Positions 28,904 through 57,000 of a stretch of 64,000 bases of DNA are shown here, piece by piece. Each line of letters starts with the position of its first letter. Position 1 is the stretch's first letter. The position numbers were made by a program, and so were the translations under genes. The stretch spans positions 186,001 to 250,000 of the forward strand of contig NW_019029001.1 in the NCBI RefSeq assembly GCF_002105155.1. The letters run 5' to 3'. This DNA is from Lobosporangium transversale. Lineage: Eukaryota. Below the pieces are notes generated by a model. The model was not told the origin of the DNA and did no database searches. It was given only the letters and a program-made list of their open reading frames with translations.

Positions 28904-30320
28904 TGTTGTAGTAAAATGTCCTTCAGATGAAGTCAATGATGTTAAGTTTGCCTAAACCTGATTTTGACGTTTCTATTGCCACAAGTTACTAGATGTTGAA
29001 ACAGCAATGAAGAAAAAAAAAAGGGAGGGAAGGAGGGTGAGAGAGAGAAAGCTTATCCTGTCCTTCATCACCAACGTTCAATTTAAATTTTCGAAGCTCT
29101 GTAAGTATACAGTCCCTAGCATTAATTGAAATAGGCGTTCTATCATGCTCTCCAACTCGGCAGCACGCTTAAGACTTTGCAGGTAGTTCTCGGCCAGGAA
29201 CACGTGAATGTCTTCAGCCTTCTAAGTAGGCCCAGTTTTGTCAAACCTTTATTGCGGTGGAAATGACAAAAGGCTCATAATTGCGTGTTCCATACAATGG
29301 ACACGTATCAACAGCCAATACATGTACATGTACATGGTGTGGCCAAGCTATAAGCGACGGACGCGTTGGATGACTTATATATAACTAGTTAAAGCCCTTA
29401 TATATCCAGAGCCATCTCTATATTCTACCTCCTCGTCCTCCGCTTTCTCTTACTATCCACTTTGTCGCCCTATGGTCCCTTTACCCTACTGATTCCGACA
29501 AAACCACCCAAGTTCTTTTTCTTTTTCGCTCAGTACCAAGTTTGCCTTGGGAGGGCTGCCGAGAATGAGGGTGGGAGACTAACGAATCAGGAATACAGGA
29601 ACAACAGTTGAAACATAACTTTGATCTACTAGGGACTGAGGAGATTAAGCTTGATAGGTTAGAGAAGTGTCCTCCGGCTACGACAACAACCAATACAACT
29701 ATGGGTACAATGACTATTGTGGATGTTCGCTAGCCAGAGAGGTGTGCTAAAATCAGCTTGGTCACTTAAAAGCACGACCAGGATGATGAACAAACATGCC
29801 ACACTAATGCGCCATTTAGTACGGCGGGTAAGTTGATGATATTGGGATCCCTTTTATTTGTTAGTTAGAAACTATATCCTAACAATGACAACGGTTCGAA
29901 TATAGTCTATGAATTATCAACCAGTGTGTGTTGCGCCCACGTCCTCTGCAGCAGCTTTCTCGAAGCTGCCTTTCTACGCTCAAAATACTAGCTGCAGCTG
30001 CCAGATCTAATTCAATTGCTATACCATCAGAGCGAAAAGCATTGCTCGTGCCTGCTTGGTCCAAGTTCTCGTTTAAAAGAGATTTGCAAGCAACCAGCGT
30101 CAACATCAATAGTAATTGGAAGGCCATAGTCCAACTATAAGTAAAACCAATTACTGTTTTTTGTCCTTTTGGCTATCGAGTTATTTCAGCCCATGAATTA
30201 TTGGCGCTTTGCAGACCAAGGGATAGCAGAATGCAGAGTCAAGGTTCGATTTGGTTGGTTTTTTATCTTTTTTTTTTTTTTTTTTTTTTGCAAATCATAT
30301 GTTGTGCTATAGCCACGAGC

Positions 30321-41090: not shown

Positions 41091-42408
41091 CTTATCTTTT
41101 TCGATTTAACTAATATCTATTAGGATCCTTATAACAATGTCATTCGCACGACCGTTGAAGCAATGGCTGCTACCTTAGGAGGCACGCAGTCTCTTCACAC
41201 AAACGCGTTTGACGAAGCCATCGGTCTGCCAACTGAATTCAGTGCCCGCATTGCCCGTAATACGCAGCTGATCTTACAAGAGGAGGCATTCATTCCCAAA
41301 GTAGCTGATCCATGGGGAGGTTCCTACATGATGGAATCAATGACCAATGATATGTATGATGCTGCTAAGAAGATTGTCGAGGAAGTCGAAGCGATGGGAG
41401 GTATGGCCAAGGCTGTAGCAAGTGGAATGCCAAAGCTTAGGATCGAAGAATCCGCTGCTAAGAAGCAGGCTCGCATCGATTCAGGTCAAGGTGAGATGCT
41501 GTTCAATGAAAAATATGTGTGTATAATATTTGTTGCTCGGAGATAATATATTTATATGATACGGATACTTTGTTTTAATCTTTTATTTTTTATTACTATG
41601 ACTTGTTATTTGGGTAAAAGATGTCATTGTCGGTGTCAACAAATATCGCTTGGCCAAAGAGGATCCGATTGATGTTTTAGCCATTGATAACACAGCCGTT
41701 CGTCTGGGCCAGACCAGACGCTTGGAGGAAATACGTAAGAAGAGGAACGTCGAAAAAGCAGAAGCATGCCTAACGGCACTGACCGAATGTGCTAAAACGG
41801 GTAAAGGCAACCTCCTTGCCCTTGCTGTTGAGGCTGCCAAGGAGAGGTGCTCTGTTGGTGAAATCTCATATGCGTTGGAGAAGGTATGGGGGCGCCATTC
41901 ACCTTCTATCCGTGTTGTCTCTGGAGCATACAAGTCTGAGTATGGTGATAGCAATGACGTGAGCGAAACCATTTCCTTGGTAGAAAAGTTTTTGAAAGAA
42001 CAGGGAAGACGCCCACGTTTATTGGTGGCCAAGATGGGTCAAGATGGGCATGATCGTGGAGCCAAAGTGATTGCTTCTGGATTTGCAGACTTGGGTTTTG
42101 ATGTTGATGTAGGACCATTATTCCAAACACCAGCCGAAGTAGCACGCCAAGCTATTGATGCTGATGTGCATGTTGTTGGCGTCTCATCTCAGGCAGCAGG
42201 CCACAAAACACTTGTACCACAATTGATTGCAGAGTTGAAGAAGCAAGGAGCCGGAGACAAGCTTGTGATCTGTGGAGGTGTTATCCCCCAACAGGACTAT
42301 CAGTTCTTGTATGACGCTGGCGTCACTTCTGTGTTTGGTCCTGGCACCCGTATCCCTGTAGCAGCACAAGAGGTAGTGAACAAGATTGACGAAAAGCTGA
42401 AGCTATAA
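39468..42408 (+). CDS. MUT: Adenosylcobalamin-dependent methylmalonyl-CoA mutase, mitochondrial
   Basis: [50 protein letters not shown], the B12-binding motif [15 protein letters not shown], and GGVIP. Spliceosomal introns are present. Confidence 0.97.
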
Positions 42409-42914
42409 AATGTAGATAAAAACAAAGAACGAGGGAAGAAAGTTGAATATTTTCGCATTAGTAATAGAAGCATTGAGCACTGAGGAAATATCTTCAAACG
42501 ATAATAAATCATTATATTTCTTCATGTGTTCAGTAAACTCTCTCTTGCAGCTCTCTTGTCAATGCTCAAATATCACTTTTCATTTTGTCTTTGCCCTTTA
42601 TAATGGATGTGCTGTATCCTGTCATTCTATCCTTTTTGTTACACACATCGACTCTTTTTCAGTGAAGATTAATTTGATAGTATGACTATCCCAGGGCAAT
42701 GTAAACTGCAATCCATTTTTGAGCATGGGTGTTCGGTTCATAAAGTCGTCTTGTTGCCCCTAAAACAAAGATTTCTTTGCTATGTTGATCTGTAAGGTTT
42801 TTAAAGTTAGTCCAGAAATTCAGGGGCAAAAGATTAGGTAGAAAGGATACAGGAGACGAAAATAACAGAACTTACAAATTTTTTGTGGGTGTGCCGGCAC
42901 CCAAATACTTGTGT

Positions 42915-44711
42915 CTAGCGTCGTGCGCGCTTTGCACCCGGAGCAGGCGACTCTTCCGAAGGTTTGTACTTTGCAGGTCTCTCTTGCCTCTCAATTTGAG
43001 CAGGACCAATTCTTGCGATGTTTTCCGCCCCTACTGCGTCACGGTCGAAGAATACCTTACATGCCCGGCAATAATTAAAGCGAAGGTTCACCGCCTCTAA
43101 AAGCTATCGCAGAGGGGTCGAGGGCAGCGGGCGCTGGTGTAAAATTCGTGCGCCCCTCGTGTCTTGACTTAAGCGTTTCAACTGGCAGTCGTTTATCAGC
43201 AAGGGCTCCAGCTTTTCTTATTTTTTTTTAAAAAAGTCATACCTGTGTGACAAGGTGTCTCGTTATAGCAGTGTGCTTGCTGGGAACCCCTTTACTACTT
43301 TCAAAGGACCCTAGGCCGACGACACTCGCTGCACCGCGTAGTCGAACGTAGCTCGTTGAGCCTTTCGTAGGTCCCATTTTTTTTAAGTGTCATCTAGACT
43401 CGTAGAACTCTTGAAGCACATCCAAATTCTTTGATCCTGTCTGTGTCTGGGACTCCTTGTTCATCCATTAAAAGTACTCATTGTACGTATCCCTTCCAAA
43501 CACAGGGATGGCGCTCTCAACCTCAATCATTCCTTTTTCACGCTTCCTTTTGTTCAACAGGTGATTGAAACGGAGGACGGGGAGGTACAAGAACCTGCTT
43601 CTCACCTTTACCGTTTGCCGCAAGTTAGGGTTGTGAGGATCCAGGGAGGAAAACGTAAGGACGTTAACAATACCAGGATCGCATCCGACGATAGTTGTGG
43701 TGTTTGCGGATGGGCATCGCTCTGGCTCGTTGAATGTGAGCTCAACATTTTCAAGCAGTTTGGAGCTCCTCTTCCAGTTTATGTTTGCGTAGTCTTCATC
43801 TGTCAGGTCTTCATCGGCTGCCTTTGAACACGTCGTGTTGAGGAATCCTTGAGAAAGCTGTAGATTCAGAACAAGACTGTTGGTAGGAATCGTTCCTTTG
43901 AGTTTGAACCGAGTTATATCTTTGTCCTGTGACTGTAGGGATACTTTGTCTCGATATCCATGAACCATGCGATCACCTCCAATGTCACAAAAGAGAGCCT
44001 GTATCAAAACCCCTTTTGTTCCCTGTATACACTCAAGCATTGCAGTCTTGGAAGGATTGTTGAGAGGCAGAATACGCTCCAGCAGCCGCTTGGTATCTTC
44101 GTTCACCCAGAGGATGTCAACTAGGGCGTGTTCAGATAGATACACATACCCAGGTGTCCAGGGGGACGTAGGAAAGTCTGAGTATTTTTTCACTTTTTTG
44201 TTCTCCCGCAAAAAAACTCAATATCGCTCATATCTTCGTTTGTTTTCTCGACATCAAACTAGAAAAAATAAAAAATAAAAAATAAAAAAGTCTGGATAGT
44301 TGCAGAATATGCATGAAAATACCCTACACAAGGTTATACCATTGCGCTCCTGTAGTGCTGCTTTAATGATGTCTGTACTTGGCCCATTAGTAGCTCTGAT
44401 GCTCTTGGAAATGAGATCTTTTTGGGATCAAAGCCTTGCACGTCCCCCAATGCGATGTCTATTTCCTTTATTGGGGGAAGTTCAGTGGTGGCCTTCATAA
44501 GTGAGGAGATAATGGGGCGTTTCTACCGCCTTTCCTTGTTTTTTTTGCCCTCACGTAAGCTGAATTGGGGCCACCTTGACCACTTAAAAGAAGGGTGGCA
44601 AGACGGAAGGAATAGCCAGTGCTATCCAAGACCTCGTCCAGTGCCTTTTTCCTCGACCTTGCTGCCCCTAGTAACCGCATGATCCTCTCAATGTCCAAGG
44701 CAATCGCCCAG
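42915..44711 (-). pseudogene. Inverted partial copy (3' half: RuvC/zinc-finger part) of the Fanzor-like gene
   Basis: Reverse complement of 45998-47794, with the same stops and frameshifts. Confidence 0.85.
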
Positions 44712-47700
44712 ACTATACATATTGATGGGGAACCTTGTACTGAGAAAGAAAAAGCAAGGACAGAACGGCAAGCCATAAGACAAAAAAATATGGATGCTTT
44801 GGAGAACGATATGAGCACCTTCGAGAGAAATTCTCGGAGTGGGGTATGGACTCGTCCTCAAGTCATGAGGCGCATCCAGAAGGGTCTTCGAGAATCAGCT
44901 GGCAACAGTCCTTAGCTCTGTCTTCGATGTCTGTCTGTGTGCAAATGAAGCGGATCCATGCATAGGGTGCCATAATGAGGAGAATGATAGGATCGTGATA
45001 TCCCAAGACTCTGATTTTTTTGCGTACGAACGAGTCTGCTTCCTAGTGCGATCCTTTCCACACCGTAGACGGAAGTTTGAGGCTTACGACGTGGACAATG
45101 TTATCAAAGTACTAAACCTGCCATCACACGAACATCTGGTGTTATTCTGTGCCATCGCAGACAATGATTACTCAAGGAACCTCGAGACGTTGGACCCGAT
45201 TAATAATCTTCGATTAGTTCGAGAGGTTGCGTGGAACAAGAACTACAATAAAATGCTTCAAGATTACCTTAGGGAAGCTAATAAGATGTTGGGAAGGAAT
45301 GCAGCCTCTGAAGAAGGCCGTTTCAGAGTAGCTCTCCGTATTTTTACTTCCGGCCATCAAACGTCGGCCCAAGCGTTACCATCGAACAATGAGTTCGATA
45401 ACTTCAAGCAGCGTCTACTCAATGGAAAGGATCTTCGCAATAGAATGGCTCAGCAAAGGCGAGCGCAGCGCCGCAGAACGTAAGAAAGCTCAAGCTATAG
45501 TTTTGGCCTTGAAACCAGACGTCCCCAATACTAATCGTTAGTCCCTTTCTTGAATAATGTAGAGGCGCACCATCATTCTATATAGCGGAAGGGTCACATA
45601 GAAACCAGTTCCGGCCCATCTTTTCTGACAAGCCGAGCATATTGAATGGGCGCACAGTTGATATCAGTAACTGCCGTCAGCACGATAGGCGAGGCCTTAA
45701 GCATCCACCACGTCGGAGAAAGGCAAAAAAGAAGCAACAGAAAAAACAAAAGCGGAAGCACAAAGGCAAGAAGCCCCACAGGGCTAAAAAAGAAGGTGCA
45801 CCAATTAGGAACTTGAAGGATGCTACGAAGGTTGATCACAGCTACAGTAGTAAGCACCCTATCAAGGCCTTAACAATTGGGTCCCTCAAGGCTTCCATGG
45901 CAAGGAAAGGCGGACTGGACGCAGATGAAAGGGATAATATTGCAAGCCAGATCCGAGGGGCAGTTGTTGTCCTCAACCGACTACGCCGCTATGCATACTG
46001 GGCGATTGCCTTGGACATTGAGAGGATCATGCGGTTACTAGGGGCAGCAAGGTCGAGGAAAAAGGCACTGGACGAGGTCTTGGATAGCACTGGCTATTCC
46101 TTCCGTCTTGCCACCCTTCTTTTAAGTGGTCAAGGTGGCCCCAATTCAGCTTACGTGAGGGCAAAAAAAACAAGGAAAGGCGGTAGAAACGCCCCATTAT
46201 CTCCTCACTTATGAAGGCCACCACTGAACTTCCCCCAATAAAGGAAATAGACATCGCATTGGGGGACGTGCAAGGCTTTGATCCCAAAAAGATCTCATTT
46301 CCAAGAGCATCAGAGCTACTAATGGGCCAAGTACAGACATCATTAAAGCAGCACTACAGGAGCGCAATGGTATAACCTTGTGTAGGGTATTTTCATGCAT
46401 ATTCTGCAACTATCCAGACTTTTTTATTTTTTATTTTTTATTTTTTCTAGTTTGATGTCGAGAAAACAAACGAAGATATGAGCGATATTGAGTTTTTTTG
46501 CGGGAGAACAAAAAAGTGAAAAAATACTCAGACTTTCCTACGTCCCCCTGGACACCTGGGTATGTGTATCTATCTGAACACGCCCTAGTTGACATCCTCT
46601 GGGTGAACGAAGATACCAAGCGGCTGCTGGAGCGTATTCTGCCTCTCAACAATCCTTCCAAGACTGCAATGCTTGAGTGTATACAGGGAACAAAAGGGGT
46701 TTTGATACAGGCTCTCTTTTGTGACATTGGAGGTGATCGCATGGTTCATGGATATCGAGACAAAGTATCCCTACAGTCACAGGACAAAGATATAACTCGG
46801 TTCAAACTCAAAGGAACGATTCCTACCAACAGTCTTGTTCTGAATCTACAGCTTTCTCAAGGATTCCTCAACACGACGTGTTCAAAGGCAGCCGATGAAG
46901 ACCTGACAGATGAAGACTACGCAAACATAAACTGGAAGAGGAGCTCCAAACTGCTTGAAAATGTTGAGCTCACATTCAACGAGCCAGAGCGATGCCCATC
47001 CGCAAACACCACAACTATCGTCGGATGCGATCCTGGTATTGTTAACGTCCTTACGTTTTCCTCCCTGGATCCTCACAACCCTAACTTGCGGCAAACGGTA
47101 AAGGTGAGAAGCAGGTTCTTGTACCTCCCCGTCCTCCGTTTCAATCACCTGTTGAACAAAAGGAAGCGTGAAAAAGGAATGATTGAGGTTGAGAGCGCCA
47201 TCCCTGTGTTTGGAAGGGATACGTACAATGAGTACTTTTAATGGATGAACAAGGAGTCCCAGACACAGACAGGATCAAAGAATTTGGATGTGCTTCAAGA
47301 GTTCTACGAGTCTAGATGACACTTAAAAAAAATGGGACCTACGAAAGGCTCAACGAGCTACGTTCGACTACGCGGTGCAGCGAGTGTCGTCGGCCTAGGG
47401 TCCTTTGAAAGTAGTAAAGGGGTTCCCAGCAAGCACACTGCTATAACGAGACACCTTGTCACACAGGTATGACTTTTTTAAAAAAAAATAAGAAAAGCTG
47501 GAGCCCTTGCTGATAAACGACTGCCAGTTGAAACGCTTAAGTCAAGACACGAGGGGCGCACGAATTTTACACCAGCGCCCGCTGCCCTCGACCCCTCTGC
47601 GATAGCTTTTAGAGGCGGTGAACCTTCGCTTTAATTATTGCCGGGCATGTAAGGTATTCTTCGACCGTGACGCAGTAGGGGCGGAAAACATCGCAAGAAT

Positions 47701-47794
47701 TGGTCCTGCTCAAATTGAGAGGCAAGAGAGACCTGCAAAGTACAAACCTTCGGAAGAGTCGCCTGCTCCGGGTGCAAAGCGCGCACGACGCTAG
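44712..47794 (+). pseudogene. XPG/FEN1-like 5' nuclease fused to TnpB/Fanzor-like RuvC nuclease, 5'-truncated, intron-containing, disrupted
   Basis: 5'-nuclease motifs: HIDG..TEK, NEADP, VISQDSD, CAIADNDY. RuvC part: IVGCDPG (I), HEFYTSARCPRPLC (II plus Zn finger), CRACKVFFDRDAVGAENI (III). Introns at 45480-45562, about 46370-46450 and 47467-47527. Several stops and frameshifts. Confidence 0.8.
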
Positions 47795-48078
47795 ACACAA
47801 GTATTTGGGTGCCGGCACACCCACAAAAAATTTGTAAGTTCTGTTATTTTCGTCTCCTGTATCCTTTCTACCTAATCTTTTGCCCCTGAATTTCTGGACT
47901 AACTTTAAAAACCTTACAGATCAACAGATACAACAGAGAAACACAAGGTTCTTAAGACGACCTTTTTTTTTTTCTTTCTTTAATCTTATATGAATAAATG
48001 AACTACATGGAAAAGTAAAACGACAGGAGGATGTGTGGAAGAAATGATTGATATGATGAAGCGATAGATAGAGATCTA

Positions 48079-50005
48079 TTACTTGGTGACCTCATGAATA
48101 GCTCTAGCAAGGTAGGCAACGTTCTTGCTCGAAATACCAGCGACAGAGATACGGCCATCCTTGGTCAAGTAAATGTGGTGCTCGTTCTTCAACTTTTCAA
48201 CCTGCTCTGGCGTCAAGCCAGTATAGCAGAACATACCAATTTGGTTGGTAATGTGGTCCCAGTTGAGCTTAGATTTGTGATCGTTGACAAGATGGTTCTT
48301 GAGCTGAGTGCGCATGGTAATAATGCGGTCAGCCATGACCTTGACCTCCTTCAACCACTCAGCGTTCAGCTCAGGACTGTTTAAAACAGCGGCAACAATG
48401 CGGGCGCCGTTAACAGGGGGATTAGAATACATGGGACGGACAACAATTTTGATCTGAGAGTCGACACGAGCCTTTTCCTCTGGAGAGGAAGTCACCAAGC
48501 TAAAAGATCCGGTACGCTCGCCATAAAGACCCATGTTCTTGGCAAATGATTGGGAGAGAGCGAGCAAGTGACCATCCTGGACAAACTTGCGGAGAGCATA
48601 AGCGTCCTTGTCAGTGCTGCCAGAGGCAAAGCCTTGGTAGGCCATATCGAAGAAAGGGAAGTGACCAGCACCTTTGATGATCTTGGAGAGTTCATCCCAC
48701 TGAGCTTGGGTCGGATCAACACCAGTAGGATTATGGGCGCAAGCATGTAGCAAAATAATCGATCCCTTGGGGGCATTCTAAGACATTCATATTTCATTAC
48801 ATCAATAAAAGTACATGTTTAGTCATAAAGCATCATGGTGTTGATTCACAATTCCATAATCACGCTTTCACAATGGCTTTACCTTGATGTCGTTGACCAT
48901 ACCCTCGAAGTCGAGGCCATTGGTCTTCTTATCAAAATATTTATAATGGTTAACCTCCAAACCAGAGTCCTTAAAGATTGGAATGTGATTACCCCAGGTA
49001 GGAGTTGGAACAAAGATCTTCTTGCTGGAGGGGTACCATCTAGCAAGGAACTCGCCTCCAACACGGAGAGCACCAGTACCAGAGATAGTTTGCGTAATGG
49101 CAATCTGCCGATGAACAAGCGGCGAAAAGGGAACATAAAAGGAATTTATACTTCAACACCCGCAAGTATAATCTGTAAAACATTCTAAATTAATACATTT
49201 AAGGTGTACTTACGCGACCCTCCTTCAAGGGAGAGCTATCTGCGCCGTAGGCGAGAAGAGCAGCACCCTTGTTGAATTCTGGAACACCAGTAATACCGGC
49301 ATATTCTTTGTCAAGCAAATCCTTCATGATCCTGTCCTCAGCCTAGATAGATATATAACATTAACAAAACACATTAAAATCAAGAAGGTTTGATTCCTTC
49401 ACATCTTTTCTTATGTCAAAACGATGATACCTTGCGGACACAATTCAAGACGAAAGGCTTTCCAGCATCATCACGGTAGGCGCCGACACCAAGGTTCATT
49501 TTGTTAGGATTGGTGTCCTTCTTGAAAGCCTCGGTGACACCAAGAATAGCATCAGGAGGGCCTAGGATTTTCACAAAAGGAAAATTGCGGGGGAGAGCTC
49601 AGTAAATTATAATCACATGTGTCACTCTTGAGTCTTTTTAAATCCACTTCATGACATTTTGAGACTTCGGATAGGGAATAATGAATACAAAACAAGTCCT
49701 TTTACACTACTCCCATTGTAGTACTAAACTACTTCAATAATATCCCAGCGTGAGGACAATGCTAATATGAATCAATCCAGAACTGGACGCTGATTTTGAT
49801 GCAGCTTATCCTCCAGGAACTCTAAACTTTCTCATGGATGCTGACAGACGCGTCCTATCTCAACGGCAATATTTCAGGCAAAAGACCTACCCATGGGAAC
49901 GTTAGACCACACTGAGGAGAAACGAACGCCAATAGCTGCAGTAGGACGCAAAGTGGCGCGGGTAAGGACAGCGCGAGCAAAGACTCTGGATTGAGCAGCC
50001 AACAT
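48079..50005 (-). CDS. GOT2: Mitochondrial aspartate aminotransferase
   Basis: Presequence [14 protein letters not shown], then [30 protein letters not shown], the PLP lysine motif [12 protein letters not shown], and DGRIS. Confidence 0.96.
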
Positions 50006-50092
50006 GATGAATGGGATGATGAATGGTTTGTTTTACGAGGATGAGGGATGTACAGTAGGAAAACGGAAGAAGAGAGAGTGAGAGAGAGAGGG

Positions 50093-50123
<31 letters not shown>

Positions 50124-50439
50124 AAGAATGAAGAAAAGCTGATCGGTTTCTGTCACGAGCAGTGTGGGACATCGACCATGTGTGCTTGTCCCTGTGTATC
50201 CGCCCGATTGCGGGGTTTTGCGGGGTGGCATGCCGCTTTGGGGTAACAAATCCGCACAAGCAAATATTCCTGGATTCTCACAGAAACTTTATTTTGACCA
50301 AGGCGCGTTCATGTGTGGTGTGCACTTTGAACTGCCCATTCGACTCACTGCTCTCACCCTCACAAAAGAGACAGCACAAACCTCTCAAGAACGTCATAGA
50401 CGTGACTGTGAAAGATTATAAGCGTGTTTTCTAATTCCT

Positions 50440-53400
50440 CCTCAGCCTTAAATGGTGCTTGACGTTTGGTGTGCACTGAACAACCGTCTTTCATCCATAG
50501 ATATGCTCCATTCTTGGCTATCGCTGGAGGCAAAGGGGCCGCTGTTAGTGCATTAGATAACCACGGACGACGTTGGCTATGTTGTAGCTCGCCATCACAT
50601 CTCTGTGCATAAATGTCTTGCATTTGGAACAATAGAGTCGGCGAATGTCAACCTGCCCTACAAATCCTTCACAGTTTGGGTGCTTCTTAGAAGTGTAGTA
50701 TTTGTTCACGCCGGCAGCAATGTATCCAAGAGATCTGGCCTAGGAGAAGCGTAGGTGTATTATTATCGGCTATAGGGTAAGAAAATATAAACAATAAGAG
50801 TAAAAAATAAAATAAAAACTTATTGTTTGAATGAAGTAAGGTTGAAACGACTCATGTAAGGAAGAAAGCCTGGTATTGGAAGGAGGCTTCCCCAGACATA
50901 CAGCAATCACAACCTTGTCGGCAACTGAACCACCCACCATCTTGGGCAAACGGCTGGCGACCTGAACGTATTCTTCATCTCGGGCCCTCTTCGCGTTCTA
51001 CTGATGCCTTTTGATGGCTCTTTTCGTATTAAAGGAACTGAGGTGTGTCTCCACTTCTGCAAGCTTATCGATGTATTCTAATGCTTGCTCCATTGCCGCG
51101 GAGGGGTGATAGACTGCTCTCAATATCGCTGATGCATTTTGTAAAACCATCAATGATTGCTGTTGTTCTCCTTTTTCATCCAGTTTCAATGCTTAAATGT
51201 GGGTTGATACACCGCCTTTTGCTTGGTAGCCAGGTTATAGAACTTGGGCTGTACGGCTGTGCCATTGGAACCTTCATGATTTGGCAACAAAGCATTGGCA
51301 CCAATCACGCACGCTTGTCCGAGGTCCAAAATCTTGATGTTTTCTGGTTGACATCCCCAAAGCCGGTGAATATCATTACTGGCCTTGACTGTCTTCCTAA
51401 TTTCGGTCAAATAGTAGTCTGCACCACCAACTGCAGAGGTGATTCGAGAAGGTAGTTTGTTCTCAGGCAATCGTTGGTACTTCACTGCATTCAGCTCGTT
51501 TATCTTAAATGCCAGGAATTGAAGAAGGAAGCCATCGTTCCGCAAGACATAACCATTTGTCGTGTGTATTTGATTCAAGGATATCGGTCTCTCATCTCTG
51601 ATAGAGACGTCGTGTAAGTCTTGGCTTTGAATTCTTTGAGCCCTCAGCACTGCTCTGGTTAAAGCCTCCAATGTCGGTAATTAGCTTGCTGATAAGGAAC
51701 CCAGGTTCTTTTCAGATAGCCAGCTCAGGCGCCGTTTTCCAGAGGATAAAGATAAGGTTGGGCCCGGACAGGTATATGAAGGGGTCCTCAAACGATGATA
51801 GTGGGGCTAACCTTCGTGAATTCTCTAGAATCTTCCTCATAGGGATGGAGTTTTCAATTGTGGGGATTTTGCAGTCAATGGTAATTGGTGTGTCAGCAGG
51901 TAAAGCGCCTCTGTTCCTTAGGGATTGGATCTATAATATCAAGGAGAGGAATGTCATGTCAGTTATATTTTATTACTTAGATGTATTAATATCTATCAGT
52001 GTGAGAAAGAGTTGTACCTTTTCGCAAAGTGTTTGTGAGCCCTTCACGCAGTGGTTCTTCAATTCGGTAGCCAGTTGCGTGACAATAGACTGTAATATTG
52101 TTGATCCAGGGTATGCCTGCCTTACTTCGATTTTATCACGGCTTGCAATGCTTGGCAAGAAGTCCTTGGTTCTGTCTATAAATCTTTGAGCACCCGCTCC
52201 TTTGCCGTTGGGAGGCTCACGAGTGTAGATACACACGACAAACGCGCCTAAAAAGCTAGTTTGGATGTTCCTTGGTGCAGCGTTTTCAACGATCGACAGC
52301 TTCCCCTATCCTTGTGACTGGTGTTGTCAATACAAAGGCTCTCGACATACAGGTGGTGGCTCTCTAGCAGACACATTTGACTTTTGAGGCTTCACCAACA
52401 ACTTGAAGGTAGCTCTTAATGGCAGATGCTAGATCAGTGCTCGCTTGATATTCGCGGAAATGGTTCCGACATTAAGAGTACTTGTCGGATGTTCCAATTC
52501 CATGACTTTGACCAGACCTTGTTTATTCATATCATTTACATTTTTTCGTTCTGCTTTCTTTTGCTGTTTTGTCTTTTTGGGCTTCGGAGTACTCAATCTG
52601 CCACTAACAGTACTTTCGAATCCCCTTCCCCATACTTTCCATCTGTACTTCTTCATCTTCTGGGGGGCAGCATGCTCTATCTGTCGCGTACGTGACTTGA
52701 ACGAATAGCACATTCGATGCTTATATTTCTTGCCAGATGCATGAGGAGATACCCTTTTGGACAACATCAATCACCGGGACGTTGTTCAAAACAAATAAAT
52801 TCAATAATAGAGCACGTTGGAGAAATTATGAAGTGGCTTCGTGAAGTGACTTGAACTTGAAGTTCGTTTTAAGTCCCATTTGTGCGATGTCATACTTATA
52901 GTCATTTTTCGAGACAATACAAAGCACGATCAACTGTCCCCTTGAGATGCTTAAATGGCCTAACATGGTTAGAACGTGATAAATATAGCCTTTATGCCTG
53001 GACACAGGTCGCCAGGTGGTCGTTATACTGTACAATATTTTAATATGTCCACTCGCTTCCCTTTGAAGAAGCTACAAACACAATCAGTAACTCCTCTCCC
53101 AATGGCCCCAGCGGCTAGCAAGTTAGTGTTGTTTTGCATTTAGTGCTAGGTTGACGGAGCTGTCGAGACAAAAAGCTCTAGCTGAGTATATCCCATTTGA
53201 TAGACAAAGGAAAAATAGTAACAAAGCAACTAGAATGTCATTTTCCTGCCATTGCACCCTGGACGCAAAGTAGGCAGAGCTTTGATTACTTTAACATATA
53301 ATGACCACCCAACAAGCTATAGTCTTCATTCTTTTATGGTTTATTACAGGCGTAGAATATTAAACATTGCCCAACGCATTTTCCACCCGCTATCCTGTTT

Positions 53401-53669
53401 AAACGAAAAGCTACAAATGGGCGAGAGAAAAAAGGCGATAGCTTATATGCATGCCTTGCAAGATAAAGTAGCCACGCTCCAGGACAATTGTTTCTGAGGT
53501 AAAAAGGGAAGATGTCCTGCATCATGTGGTAAAAGCAATTTATGAACAGAAAAATTGGCCGAAGTTCGCCAAGATCGCTCGCTAATATCTCTCTCAGAAA
53601 AGTACAGGATATCAACGCTTTGGTCCTCGAAAAGACAAATTTAAATGCGCAAAGACCATCACACACCAT
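50440..53669 (-). pseudogene. Second, diverged XPG-like + Fanzor-like pseudogene
   Basis: LIVLCIVSKNDY (H3TH-like), EHPTSTLNVGT, LRNDGFLLQ, ILDLGQACVIGA (RuvC-I), VNKYYTSKKHPNC, CSKCKTFMHRDVMASYNI (RuvC-III). A possible decayed N-terminus MVCDGLCAF lies at 53669. The 5' limit is uncertain. Confidence 0.75.
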
Positions 53670-53853
53670 CGTTGAGAGATTGCAACTCCTGTGGGATACA
53701 CTAATTTAAAGCTGCTCATCTCCAGAAACCGTGAACTTCTCTCAGCTCAGCATAGCATTGCCCCCTAAGGGGAATGCGGTTGTGGAAGGAGAAAGGAGAA
53801 AGGAAAAAGAAAGCTTGAAGGAAAGGGCCGAGAAGATGCAATTGAGAAAAACG

Positions 53854-53884
<31 letters not shown>

Positions 53885-54089
53885 CAACGAAAGGATGGTC
53901 TTTATCATAGTGCGTCTTCAATGCGGGAGCCTGCTAGGCCAAAACGTATGAAAGCATACTTATGCTTATGTTTTGCGTAACAAAACTCATCCTTTCTAGC
54001 TAACAAACATGTAAGGGAAATTGAAAGGATGTACAGAAAGTGACTTGGATTTTATTGATGGACCCTTTTACCTCGCTGGACAATCTTTA

Positions 54090-57000
54090 TCATCGCCGCA
54101 CTTTCCTTGACTGATGCAGAGGCAGTGACATTGATTGATGGCATTCTTTGTACAATGCCATCCCTTGTGCAAATCCCTCAAATCCTGGTCGATCTTTTGC
54201 AACCGGCTTCAGCTCGTGCAGCCTTTGGTCGAGCATGACTCGGTAATATTCGACAGCAGTATCTCTTTCTAATTGCTCCAACGTATGGTCCTTATATTTA
54301 GTTTTGCTGGCTTCTCCCTGAAAAGAGCTCATTTCCACGAGCGAGTTGGCATCCTGTCGTTGTTGTCGCCGCCGCTGCTGCTTCTCACGTAATTGTATCA
54401 AATTATGGCTTTGGAAAAAATCAAGAGTCATACCTACAAAAGCAGCAAGGAGTCTACCCTGTGAGAATGTCTCAAGTCTCCCCGGAACTGGGATCCATAA
54501 TGTTCGATACATAAGTGTCCACACAAGGCTTTGAGGAGCAAGATGCTGATCTCCGCATCCTATCAATGGCGTGGTCATCATAGCAGCACCCAACTCGACT
54601 TTAAATGATAAGAAGAAGGAAAAATACTATTAATGAATATATATAATAGGCAGTATAGTTGAGTCATGTTAAGAGTTATTGATTTACCTGCGCGCTTCCC
54701 ATTTGGCGTCATGGCAGTCTTCAAGAGTTGCTTCAGGATAGTAGTTGCAAACTGAGCAGGGCCAAGGTGACATAGTGTTGCCCGAAAGAGGTCCACGTCG
54801 ATGTGGTAGCATGACTCACCGAAGACTGGCCATCCTTTTTCCTTCCTTGTCACTATAGATGTCCTGCCGCCCAAGGCAATGGCTTCAAAAGCTAAGGAGG
54901 TCTGTTGTGCCAACTTTGGTACATCATAAGTACCAGATACAGACCAAGCTAATGACGAAACGGAACCAAACATGCAGCATTTTTAGTATGTTTGTCCTAC
55001 ATCATTAAATAGGCTTTTATTCATAATCACCATTTACTCTTTCACTGATCCCTTACGATAATAATTAAGAGAAGCTGCTGCCAAGCGCTCCTGGATAATG
55101 GCCATCTGACGATCATTATTATCCACCGTTTGGTGCTCCAATGCTGCCTGGATTTCACTCTTCAGCAGCCGCATTAGCCGTGTTGGAAACGCTTCTCCAG
55201 TAAGTAAAGATTTGAGAATTGTCTGTAACATCGCAACGGCTGCCACTGTCTTTCCATTCCCATGACTATGCATTGTGTTGGACTGGCTCGAGTGATGTAC
55301 AGGCCTAATACCCTTCGCTGCAAGTGGTGAGACAATGTGCCCTGTTGGAGATAGCATATTTGATGAATGAGCATGAATTAAACCTGATGCAGGCTGTGCG
55401 CTCGGTAGATGTGCTTTTGTTGAATCCGGCGATGATACTGAAGATGAGAATAAAATTTCCTGACAAAGAAATTGGACGACACCAACTAGCACAAATAGCA
55501 GGCAGGGCTGAAGAAAATAATCCAACCCGCTATTGAGTGTGGTAATATCGATCACGCCTGCTTGACAAGCGGCAAGAGACTGTGCAAAGATTGAGGGCGA
55601 AATTTCCAGCAGCATCTGTGGCTTGGATGTTCTATGTATCAGTGGAAACAGATGTCGGAAGTAAAGTTAGCTGTATCCCCTTCCTTGAGAGCGCTCCATT
55701 TTTTATATGATACGTAACAAATTATCATCATCCTACTGGATCAAATCATCCGAGATTCCCATGCTATCGAAAAGAGCACTGACCCATCTTCCCATCAAGC
55801 TATGCATATCCGCTGACATGGATGACATGGATGTAGCGGGTATCACGGCTGAGGTGCGATGGAGCCAGAGATAACAAAATCCCTGTTTTTCTTTGAAAAT
55901 GCTATTCAAGCAACTCGCCAGTTCATATCGACGAATGATAGTCATGATAAGAATCAGAACTGTTCCAAGCCCTTCTAAATTAGAGTTGCATGTGTCTGTA
56001 ATTGTGATTGCGTACAAATATATATTAGAATGAGTATTCCGCATGGATATTAAGAGACGACTTGTTTTATGTCGTTTGTTAGTTTTGCCCATTACCAATA
56101 TCATCGCCCAAACTATGCTGGAAATTATTTACAAACCCTTCGAGAGGAACTAGTAATGCTGACGGTGGCTGCAAGAAATGGATGAGATCTAGCACCAACG
56201 GGTTATCATCCAATGTTTGACAAAGCCTTGAAAGTACAGGTACGTCATTCCTGAACCCTGCATCCCTGCAAACCTGATAACGAAGGAAAATCAAGTAGGT
56301 CCCATAATGAAGCTCCATGCTGTCAGTCACTAATAAAGAACAATCAATTCAAAACAGGAAAAAGAGAACTCCAACAGTTTCTTCATTCCTCTAGTTCCTC
56401 TGAGATAGGACATACCTGAATGATACGATTAACCAATTTTTCTTGGTGCACAAAATCACTTAGAGTCCTTCCACAGAGATCATCAATTAAATCAAGTGAT
56501 GAATGGTTGATAGCGCAATAGTCGTCAGAGGTGTCTTGAAAGGATGTTAAGCCATGAGGAACATGGAGCTGATTGGGTCGGATAAGCCCCTTCGTAATGC
56601 ATCCAACAGCAATTGCCCGGAGCACGTCCAATTGTTCTACTGTACTGTCCCCTGCTATACTCTGATCGCATTCATTTAATATCCCACGATAGAATGACAA
56701 TTGTCGAAGAGCAGATTCTACCAAGCTACATATCTTTCAAATGTTTTTGTCCGAGATTATCATTGTAAGAGTGACTTGAAACTTAAACACCAAAGTAATA
56801 AAATGAACTAGATAGTACTGTGACCATGGCCAGCATATGAAAGCATTCTGCATACCTCGCCTTGAGGGAGACCAAATTGTGAAACGATATAAGGGATCTG
56901 TTGGTTATTACAGAAGAATAGGTTTGTTAAATGAAATGTCACCAATATTCGAGCTTTCATTGATTAGCTCACCCTTGGATGCAAAAATAACTCACCTTGA

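Follow-up and report, generated by a model that had tools for sequence, protein, structure and literature searches.

The closest described relatives of the family reported here are the Fanzor1 proteins SpuFz1, GtFz1, and PpFz1, described in PMC10432273 and PMC11423790 and ~600 to 730 aa long, and the Fanzor1 elements of MuDR type in Mucorales (ROr-4 and PBl-3, plus MCi-4), which the accessible text of Bao and Jurka 2013 (PMC3627910) reports as transposase-less with 9-bp TSDs and without mention of a second nuclease domain. The role accepted for Fanzor-type systems in PMC13565253 is restorative homing, and the review text consulted regards cut-and-paste transposons as awkward hosts for Fanzor homing. 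The family shares with Fanzor1 its fold, the RuvC triad with its Glu six residues before a C4 zinc finger, carriage by a terminal inverted repeat (TIR) element, and a scaffold predicted to have two stems and to take in the right TIR. In contrast, its members are ~1,150 to 1,300 aa long, with an N-terminal 5′ nuclease domain of ~300 aa and up to four conserved introns, and one of its clades carries DLG at RuvC-I instead of the DPG that Yoon 2023 (PMC10711439) calls near-exclusive to Fanzors. Like the Mucorales elements, those described below place a Fanzor1 in a MuDR-like TIR element of early-diverging fungi; unlike them, complete elements encode a divergent MULE-SWIM transposase. The N-terminal domain resembles the EXO1/FEN1/XPG/GEN1 (Rad2) 5′ nucleases, including giant-virus homologs, in fold and active-site pattern and differs from them in being transposon-borne and fused to a predicted RNA-guided nuclease.

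The locus lies in a 64-kb window of Lobosporangium transversale, by which we mean the whole stretch of DNA analysed. It is intron-rich fungal DNA with two decayed family members, copy 1 and copy 2 (Table 1), whose nearest named relatives are Mortierellaceae proteins. Copy 2 (53050 to 50368, minus strand) is a decayed, still-spliced pseudogene of this Mortierellaceae family. With a probability of roughly 0.6, we read it as the broken, left-truncated gene of a Mutator-type transposon whose intact fusion protein would cut the emptied donor site, resect the cut ends, and restore the element. What remains in the window is merely a fossil by which the family can be recognized, and it cannot itself perform any of the cutting, resection, or homing steps proposed.

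Table 1. Coordinates of the two copies and neighboring features in the window, and of the left-end motif in metagenome relatives
Feature	Position	Strand	Remarks
EXO1/FEN1/XPG-like domain remnant, copy 2	52850..53050	-	profile columns 186-257; 52 bits; second profile E 1e-22
Linker and first half of Fanzor recognition region, copy 2	52018..52760	-	frameshifts and one stop
87-nt GT-AG intron, copy 2	51931..52017	-	family-conserved site, column 655
Fanzor exon carrying the RuvC-I Asp (codon 51326-51324, in DLGQ), copy 2	50824..51930	-	several frameshifts; stops 51714, 51577, 51188, 51000
84-nt intron, donor AT not GT, copy 2	50740..50823	-	family-conserved site, column 1071
Last exon, copy 2	50434..50739	-	PF07282 E 1e-10; stop at 50547
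Decayed right end of copy 2, GTGACGT-like motif and TIR	50368..50407	-	right-end matrix from relatives
Host aspartate aminotransferase gene (GOT2-like)	48079..50005	-	between the two copies
Copy 1, decayed DPG-subfamily member	44706..47926	+	profile columns 74-1148
Perfect inverted duplicate (1,929 bp) of 45998-47926	42783..44711	-	occupies expected place of copy 1 5′ end
Left-end motif sites	L001:149-169, L002:197-217, L003:189-209, L008:284-304, L010:283-303, L032:108-128		

The N-terminal part of the family profile matched FEN1 (E 5e-11), Rad2, XPG, and EXO1, and its C-terminal finger matched Fanzor2/TnpB-like chains. A model of the N-domain (pLDDT 94) was closest to EXO1 (Z 21.1, rmsd 2.8, 269 aligned), followed by XPG (Z 18.7) and FEN1 (Z 18.6), with Xrn1 at Z 14.8. 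Nine active-site positions (seven acidic, two basic), which we take to correspond to the human FEN1 catalytic set, are retained in 27 to 32 of 32 aligned members. Fold and active-site pattern thus place the N-domain model in the FEN1/XPG (Rad2) superfamily and predict 5′ exonuclease or flap endonuclease activity; since it has 13 to 17% identity to any solved EXO1/FEN1/XPG/GEN1 member, we assign it to no subfamily. For the full-length model, which is weak (pLDDT 61), the top six Foldseek matches were the Fanzor1 structures SpuFz, GtFz, and PpFz (E 1e-7 to 5e-6). Intact relatives show the Fanzor1 pattern D-X(125-275)-[TS][TS]-XX-C4 zinc finger-X(5-50)-RD with the RuvC-II Glu standing six residues ahead of the finger, and D877, E1063, T1066-S1067, and D1097 are invariant in all 11 that were aligned. 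Spliced alignment of 11 full-length metagenome loci gave, in 10 of them, a single frame through both domains that is free of stops and frameshifts (L008 carries one frameshift, and the frame of L050 begins only with column 41); GT-AG introns fall close to columns 257, 335, 655, and 1071. The nuclease and Fanzor parts are thus predicted to form a single protein.

This two-domain layout recurs widely. Both domains were found in 18 database proteins and copy 1 among 195 sequences examined, and a representative search returned 928 clusters at E below 1e-30; 10 clusters were looked up, of which the 8 named ones all belong to Mortierellaceae, with one annotated "Rad2 nuclease." Earlier supplements already class these proteins with Fanzor1: members of both subfamilies described below, including DLG proteins, are labelled FZ1 in the Saito 2023 table (PMC10432273), and P0001, the 1,186-aa Mortierella sp. 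GBAus27b protein that served as reference for the copy 2 alignment, is a Fanzor entry in Table S2 of Yoon 2023 (PMC10711439). The fusion itself is apparently undescribed in the literature searched. The term "XPG" does not occur in the readable supplements of PMC10432273 and PMC10711439, and two supplement files of Jiang 2023 (PMC10530073) hold no Mortierella rows. Full-text searches turned up no account of the fusion (subscription papers, Repbase, or bioRxiv supplements could hold one), no papers joining Fanzor with Mortierella or XPG, and, for Fanzor with Exo1 or TnpB with flap endonuclease, only editing reviews or unrelated titles. As a lead to its origin, the nearest Atlas clusters of P0001 residues 1 to 300 and 430 to 1130 are mostly giant-virus (Nucleocytoviricota) proteins, a hint that both halves may have come through giant viruses. 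No viral locus carried the full profile, and the N-domain profile found one, where the XPG gene stands alone and none of the ORFs is a Fanzor.

Intact relatives were found among 80 metagenome loci (L-numbered), 21 of which were examined for both ends. Clear TIRs of 25 to 29 bp, flanking 5.6 to 7.9 kb of element, occur in 7 of these 21 (L001 to L003, L008, L010, L013, and L032), representing three element families, and weaker candidates occur in L050 and L063. The left part of the element encodes an intron-rich MULE-SWIM transposase on the strand opposite to the nuclease-Fanzor gene, with exons in L001 to L004, L008 to L013, L022, L029, L032, L035, and L046 that are homologous in seven locus groups; it is shortened in the L008 family. 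Pfam supports its assignment with PF04434 (E 9e-7) and PF10551 (E 6e-4 and 9e-3, below the curated cutoff, in split exons). The host element is therefore a MULE/Mutator-type TIR transposon. Copies 99.4 to 100% identical sit in different flanks, including a 99.9%-identical element with four right flanks, as expected if they moved recently. In 12 plus 15 pairs of left and right flanks, where collapsed metagenome repeats may join the flanks of separate insertions, no match of at least 5 bp was found that could represent the 8- to 11-bp TSD of a MULE/MuDR transposon. Elements also lie beside or inside members of the same group (L013:440-485, L002:7650-9144, L003:1-126, and L001:130-169), with the right end of a different family immediately to the left of L013 and a second MULE transposase right of L002, which suggests clustered or nested insertion.

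The right end of these elements is predicted to be a structured, omegaRNA-like scaffold that overlaps the TIR and contains a covarying stem 1. In the stretch from stop codon to right end, the motif GTGACGT is common to 28 families, chosen for having it, 27 nt from the right end, and a stricter hairpin pattern was present in 26 of 78 loci, many of them cut short. The short stem 1 has changes on both sides at all five of its pairs. The long stem uses the TIR as its 3′ arm; when upstream arms are compared as partners for the TIR, its own arm ranks first in 10 of the 28 families and among the top three in 18. Fold z was below -1.5 in 12 of 17 relatives folded, while the right ends of L032, L039, L068, and L075 had z above -1 and folded no better than shuffles. 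RNAalifold on the raw right-end alignment gave no consensus pair.

Given these parts, restorative homing with built-in end resection is the likely role of the intact fusion. Excision of the MULE would empty the donor site; an RNA transcribed from the right end and its flank would then guide the Fanzor part to the emptied site for cutting, the fused EXO1/FEN1-like 5′ nuclease would resect the cut ends 5′ to 3′, and repair by homologous recombination would copy the element back from a filled copy. A Fanzor with its own resection nuclease would, if this is true, be a natural answer to the problem of homing from a cut-and-paste transposon. Engineered exonuclease-editor fusions serve to shift repair outcomes, and the natural fusion would be their evolved counterpart. 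Since intact, recently mobile elements with a transposase, an ORF, and a predicted guide scaffold are at hand (L001 and L032), the model is directly testable. A different use of the FEN-superfamily domain, on RNA or transposition intermediates (omegaRNA 5′ trimming, or flap and gap cleanup for the MULE) rather than on Fanzor-cut ends, would suit a fold that includes Xrn1 and other 5′ nucleases and a domain that always travels in a cut-and-paste element; however, DNA 5′ nucleases, led by EXO1, head the structural matches, and the domain is fused to the Fanzor and not to the transposase, so we consider this use unlikely.

One regularity at the left ends bears on a second alternative. ACG[TC] ends 13 to 14 nt outside 6 of 7 left ends in three element families (the exception being L013), and full GTGACG occurs in 4 of 7, against backgrounds of 0.005 and 0.0003 per base, respectively; the offset was chosen after seeing the data. 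The motif may reflect a target-site preference or a TAM-like signal, and its 13- to 14-nt offset is unexplained by a simple homing model; no conserved TAM abuts the left end. Conceivably the element is an RNA-guided eukaryotic transposon, in which the Fanzor would read a GTGACG-type TAM and cut about one guide length away, the EXO1-like domain would trim, and the MULE would insert there. Such steering would account for the fixed offset, which resembles the Fanzor1 guide length of 14 to 15 nt reported in PMC10432273, and Bao and Jurka 2013 (PMC3627910) noted fixed motifs adjoining long TSDs in other Fanzor elements. We nevertheless regard steered insertion as improbable, given the few ends, the post hoc position, a motif-less L013, and searches that found neither a guide matching those 14 nt nor a TSD. 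Furthermore, the heptamer recurs without variation within the right end, so that binding by the transposase or by a host factor of the bZIP type is conceivable.

Returning to restorative homing and to the fossil that led to it, copy 2 is collinear with P0001 from residue 190 to residue 1122 (46% identity over 788 columns). Frameshift-aware alignment revealed ~10 frameshifts as well as 9 stops, of which 3 lie within a poorly aligned deleted part. The XPG remnant holds the last Asp of D-x-D, WRP, and a helix-turn-helix with SKNDY, and ~110 residues after it are lost (about columns 258 to 370, including the first two intron sites of the family). Copy 2 keeps only the last two of the seven acidic active-site positions. 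In the last exon, the alternative RuvC-II Glu has become Lys (50703-50701) and the first zinc-finger Cys has become His, which makes copy 2 a dead Fanzor1 member; the RuvC-III Asp is kept (50601-50599). The preliminary description had correctly recognized this E>K change, together with a W>TAG stop and the AT donor, which lie at 51000 and 50823, respectively. It had placed the copy at 50440 to 53669, with MVCDGLCAF as a possible decayed XPG start. The start at 53669 fails: profile columns 1 to 185 are undetectable upstream with two profiles, the second of which found nothing at the MVCDGLCAF region, and frameshift-aware alignment of columns 1 to 195 to 53030-53760 scored 13.1 versus 13.4 ± 1.6 for 40 shuffles. 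We therefore reject the MVCDGL ORF as an XPG N terminus. The other boundary passes 50440, to about 50368. Resemblance to paralogs ends at 50434, and the right-end matrix then finds its best site in the whole window at 50407-50368 (18.7 bits, versus 9.3 for the next), indicating that copy 2 retains a decayed right end, which one paralog contig also carries. Most of the predicted omegaRNA scaffold upstream of it is deleted (fold z 0.15), a covariance model from the raw alignment, which has no pairs, reported this end at an E of only 8.3, and Rfam gave no matches within 42000-55000. Only the right TIR survives; no left TIR or TSD was found for copy 2, and no remnant of a MULE transposase is present in the window.

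Paralogs of copy 2 are many and diverged. In run X1, from the same organism, 35 of 47 contigs, which do not equal copy counts, were less than 95% alike and therefore represent other, diverged copies; X3 and X4 agree. Two paralog contigs run on past 53027 with loose ends that carry an intact D-S-D motif (V-D-S-D-M-L-A-Y). X5 is a putative RNA run of low depth, taken as RNA by guess with support from a spliced joint: one of its contigs, 100% identical to copy 2, is without the intron at 51931-52017, and the joint is absent from three DNA runs. The pseudogene is thus probably still transcribed at a low level, expression evidence being limited to the parts of copy 2 with X5 cover; no contig of this run spanned the nuclease-Fanzor junction. 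A reading of copy 2 as a host gene that was domesticated and still functions, or as a chance neighborhood of unrelated fragments, is very improbable and is refuted for this copy by the lesions, the many paralogs, and intact TIR relatives with the same domain order and intron sites, even though it appears to be transcribed, with one intron spliced, in X5.

The lesions had been described as all G>A, a bias that we could not confirm. Judged by the family residue, the stops of copy 2 appear to be products of C>T as well as G>A, and compared with its paralogs transitions account for 259 of 321 places and are symmetric (75 G>A, 75 T>C, 58 A>G, and 51 C>T), while the RIP indices of copy 2 are the same as those of GOT2 and of the whole window. 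RIP-like or G>A-biased decay is rejected on these grounds; the decay of copy 2 is by ordinary transitions in both directions.

The relation between the two copies is more distant than it first appeared. All motifs quoted in the preliminary description are present on the minus strand in the order claimed, and 7 of the 8 motif pairs checked between copies fall on the same or nearly the same profile columns (462/462, 707/707, 754/752, 894/894, 1084/1084, 1109/1109, and 1117/1117); the eighth, NDY, is unaligned in the global alignment but has a local match to the same profile region. Direct comparison against shuffles showed a significant but weak similarity across both domains: 96 versus 32 ± 4 for the RuvC-Zn part (0 of 200 as high), 49 versus 24 ± 4 for the XPG piece (0 of 500), and 57 versus 36 ± 6 for the middle (2 of 200). 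A conserved, old, multicopy, and mobile family is upheld by the proteins with both domains, the intact frames, and the many diverged paralogs, but the copies fall in two deeply split subfamilies and are not close kin. They share 17.5% identity (100 of 571 shared columns), and a long branch with SH-aLRT 99 separates two clades in a quick, midpoint-rooted tree of 49 rows, which omits 146 of the 195 sequences (RuvC-I to III not covered), is built without Fanzor2 or TnpB outgroups, and takes its Fz1 branch labels from Saito's published table. Copy 1 groups in a DPG clade with L. transversale proteins (77 to 85% identity) and M. alpina proteins, whereas copy 2 groups in a clade spanning many genera, in which RuvC-I reads DLG in 13 of 13 loci. 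The most plausible reading is that each copy inserted independently, from a different old subfamily.

The 5′ end of copy 1 is lost to the perfect inverted duplicate, which may be a very recent event, gene conversion, or an assembly artefact; the duplication gives copy 1 two 3′ ends, as in a foldback element. At its 3′ end, folding was no better than shuffles (z 0.4 to 0.8), and the right-end matrix found no motif of the copy 2 type. The GOT2-like gene stands between the copies, as had been noted, with Med5 upstream of copy 2 and methylmalonyl-CoA mutase beyond copy 1. About 360 bp separate the GOT2-like start codon from the right end of copy 2, which is upstream of it and on the same strand (50368-50005), and it is possible that copy 2, apparently transcribed, affects the GOT2-like promoter. 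Elsewhere in the window, 29762-29988 weakly resembles (E 1.5e-4) the RuvC/zinc-finger part at the C terminus of a copy 1-type protein and is possibly a third small remnant.
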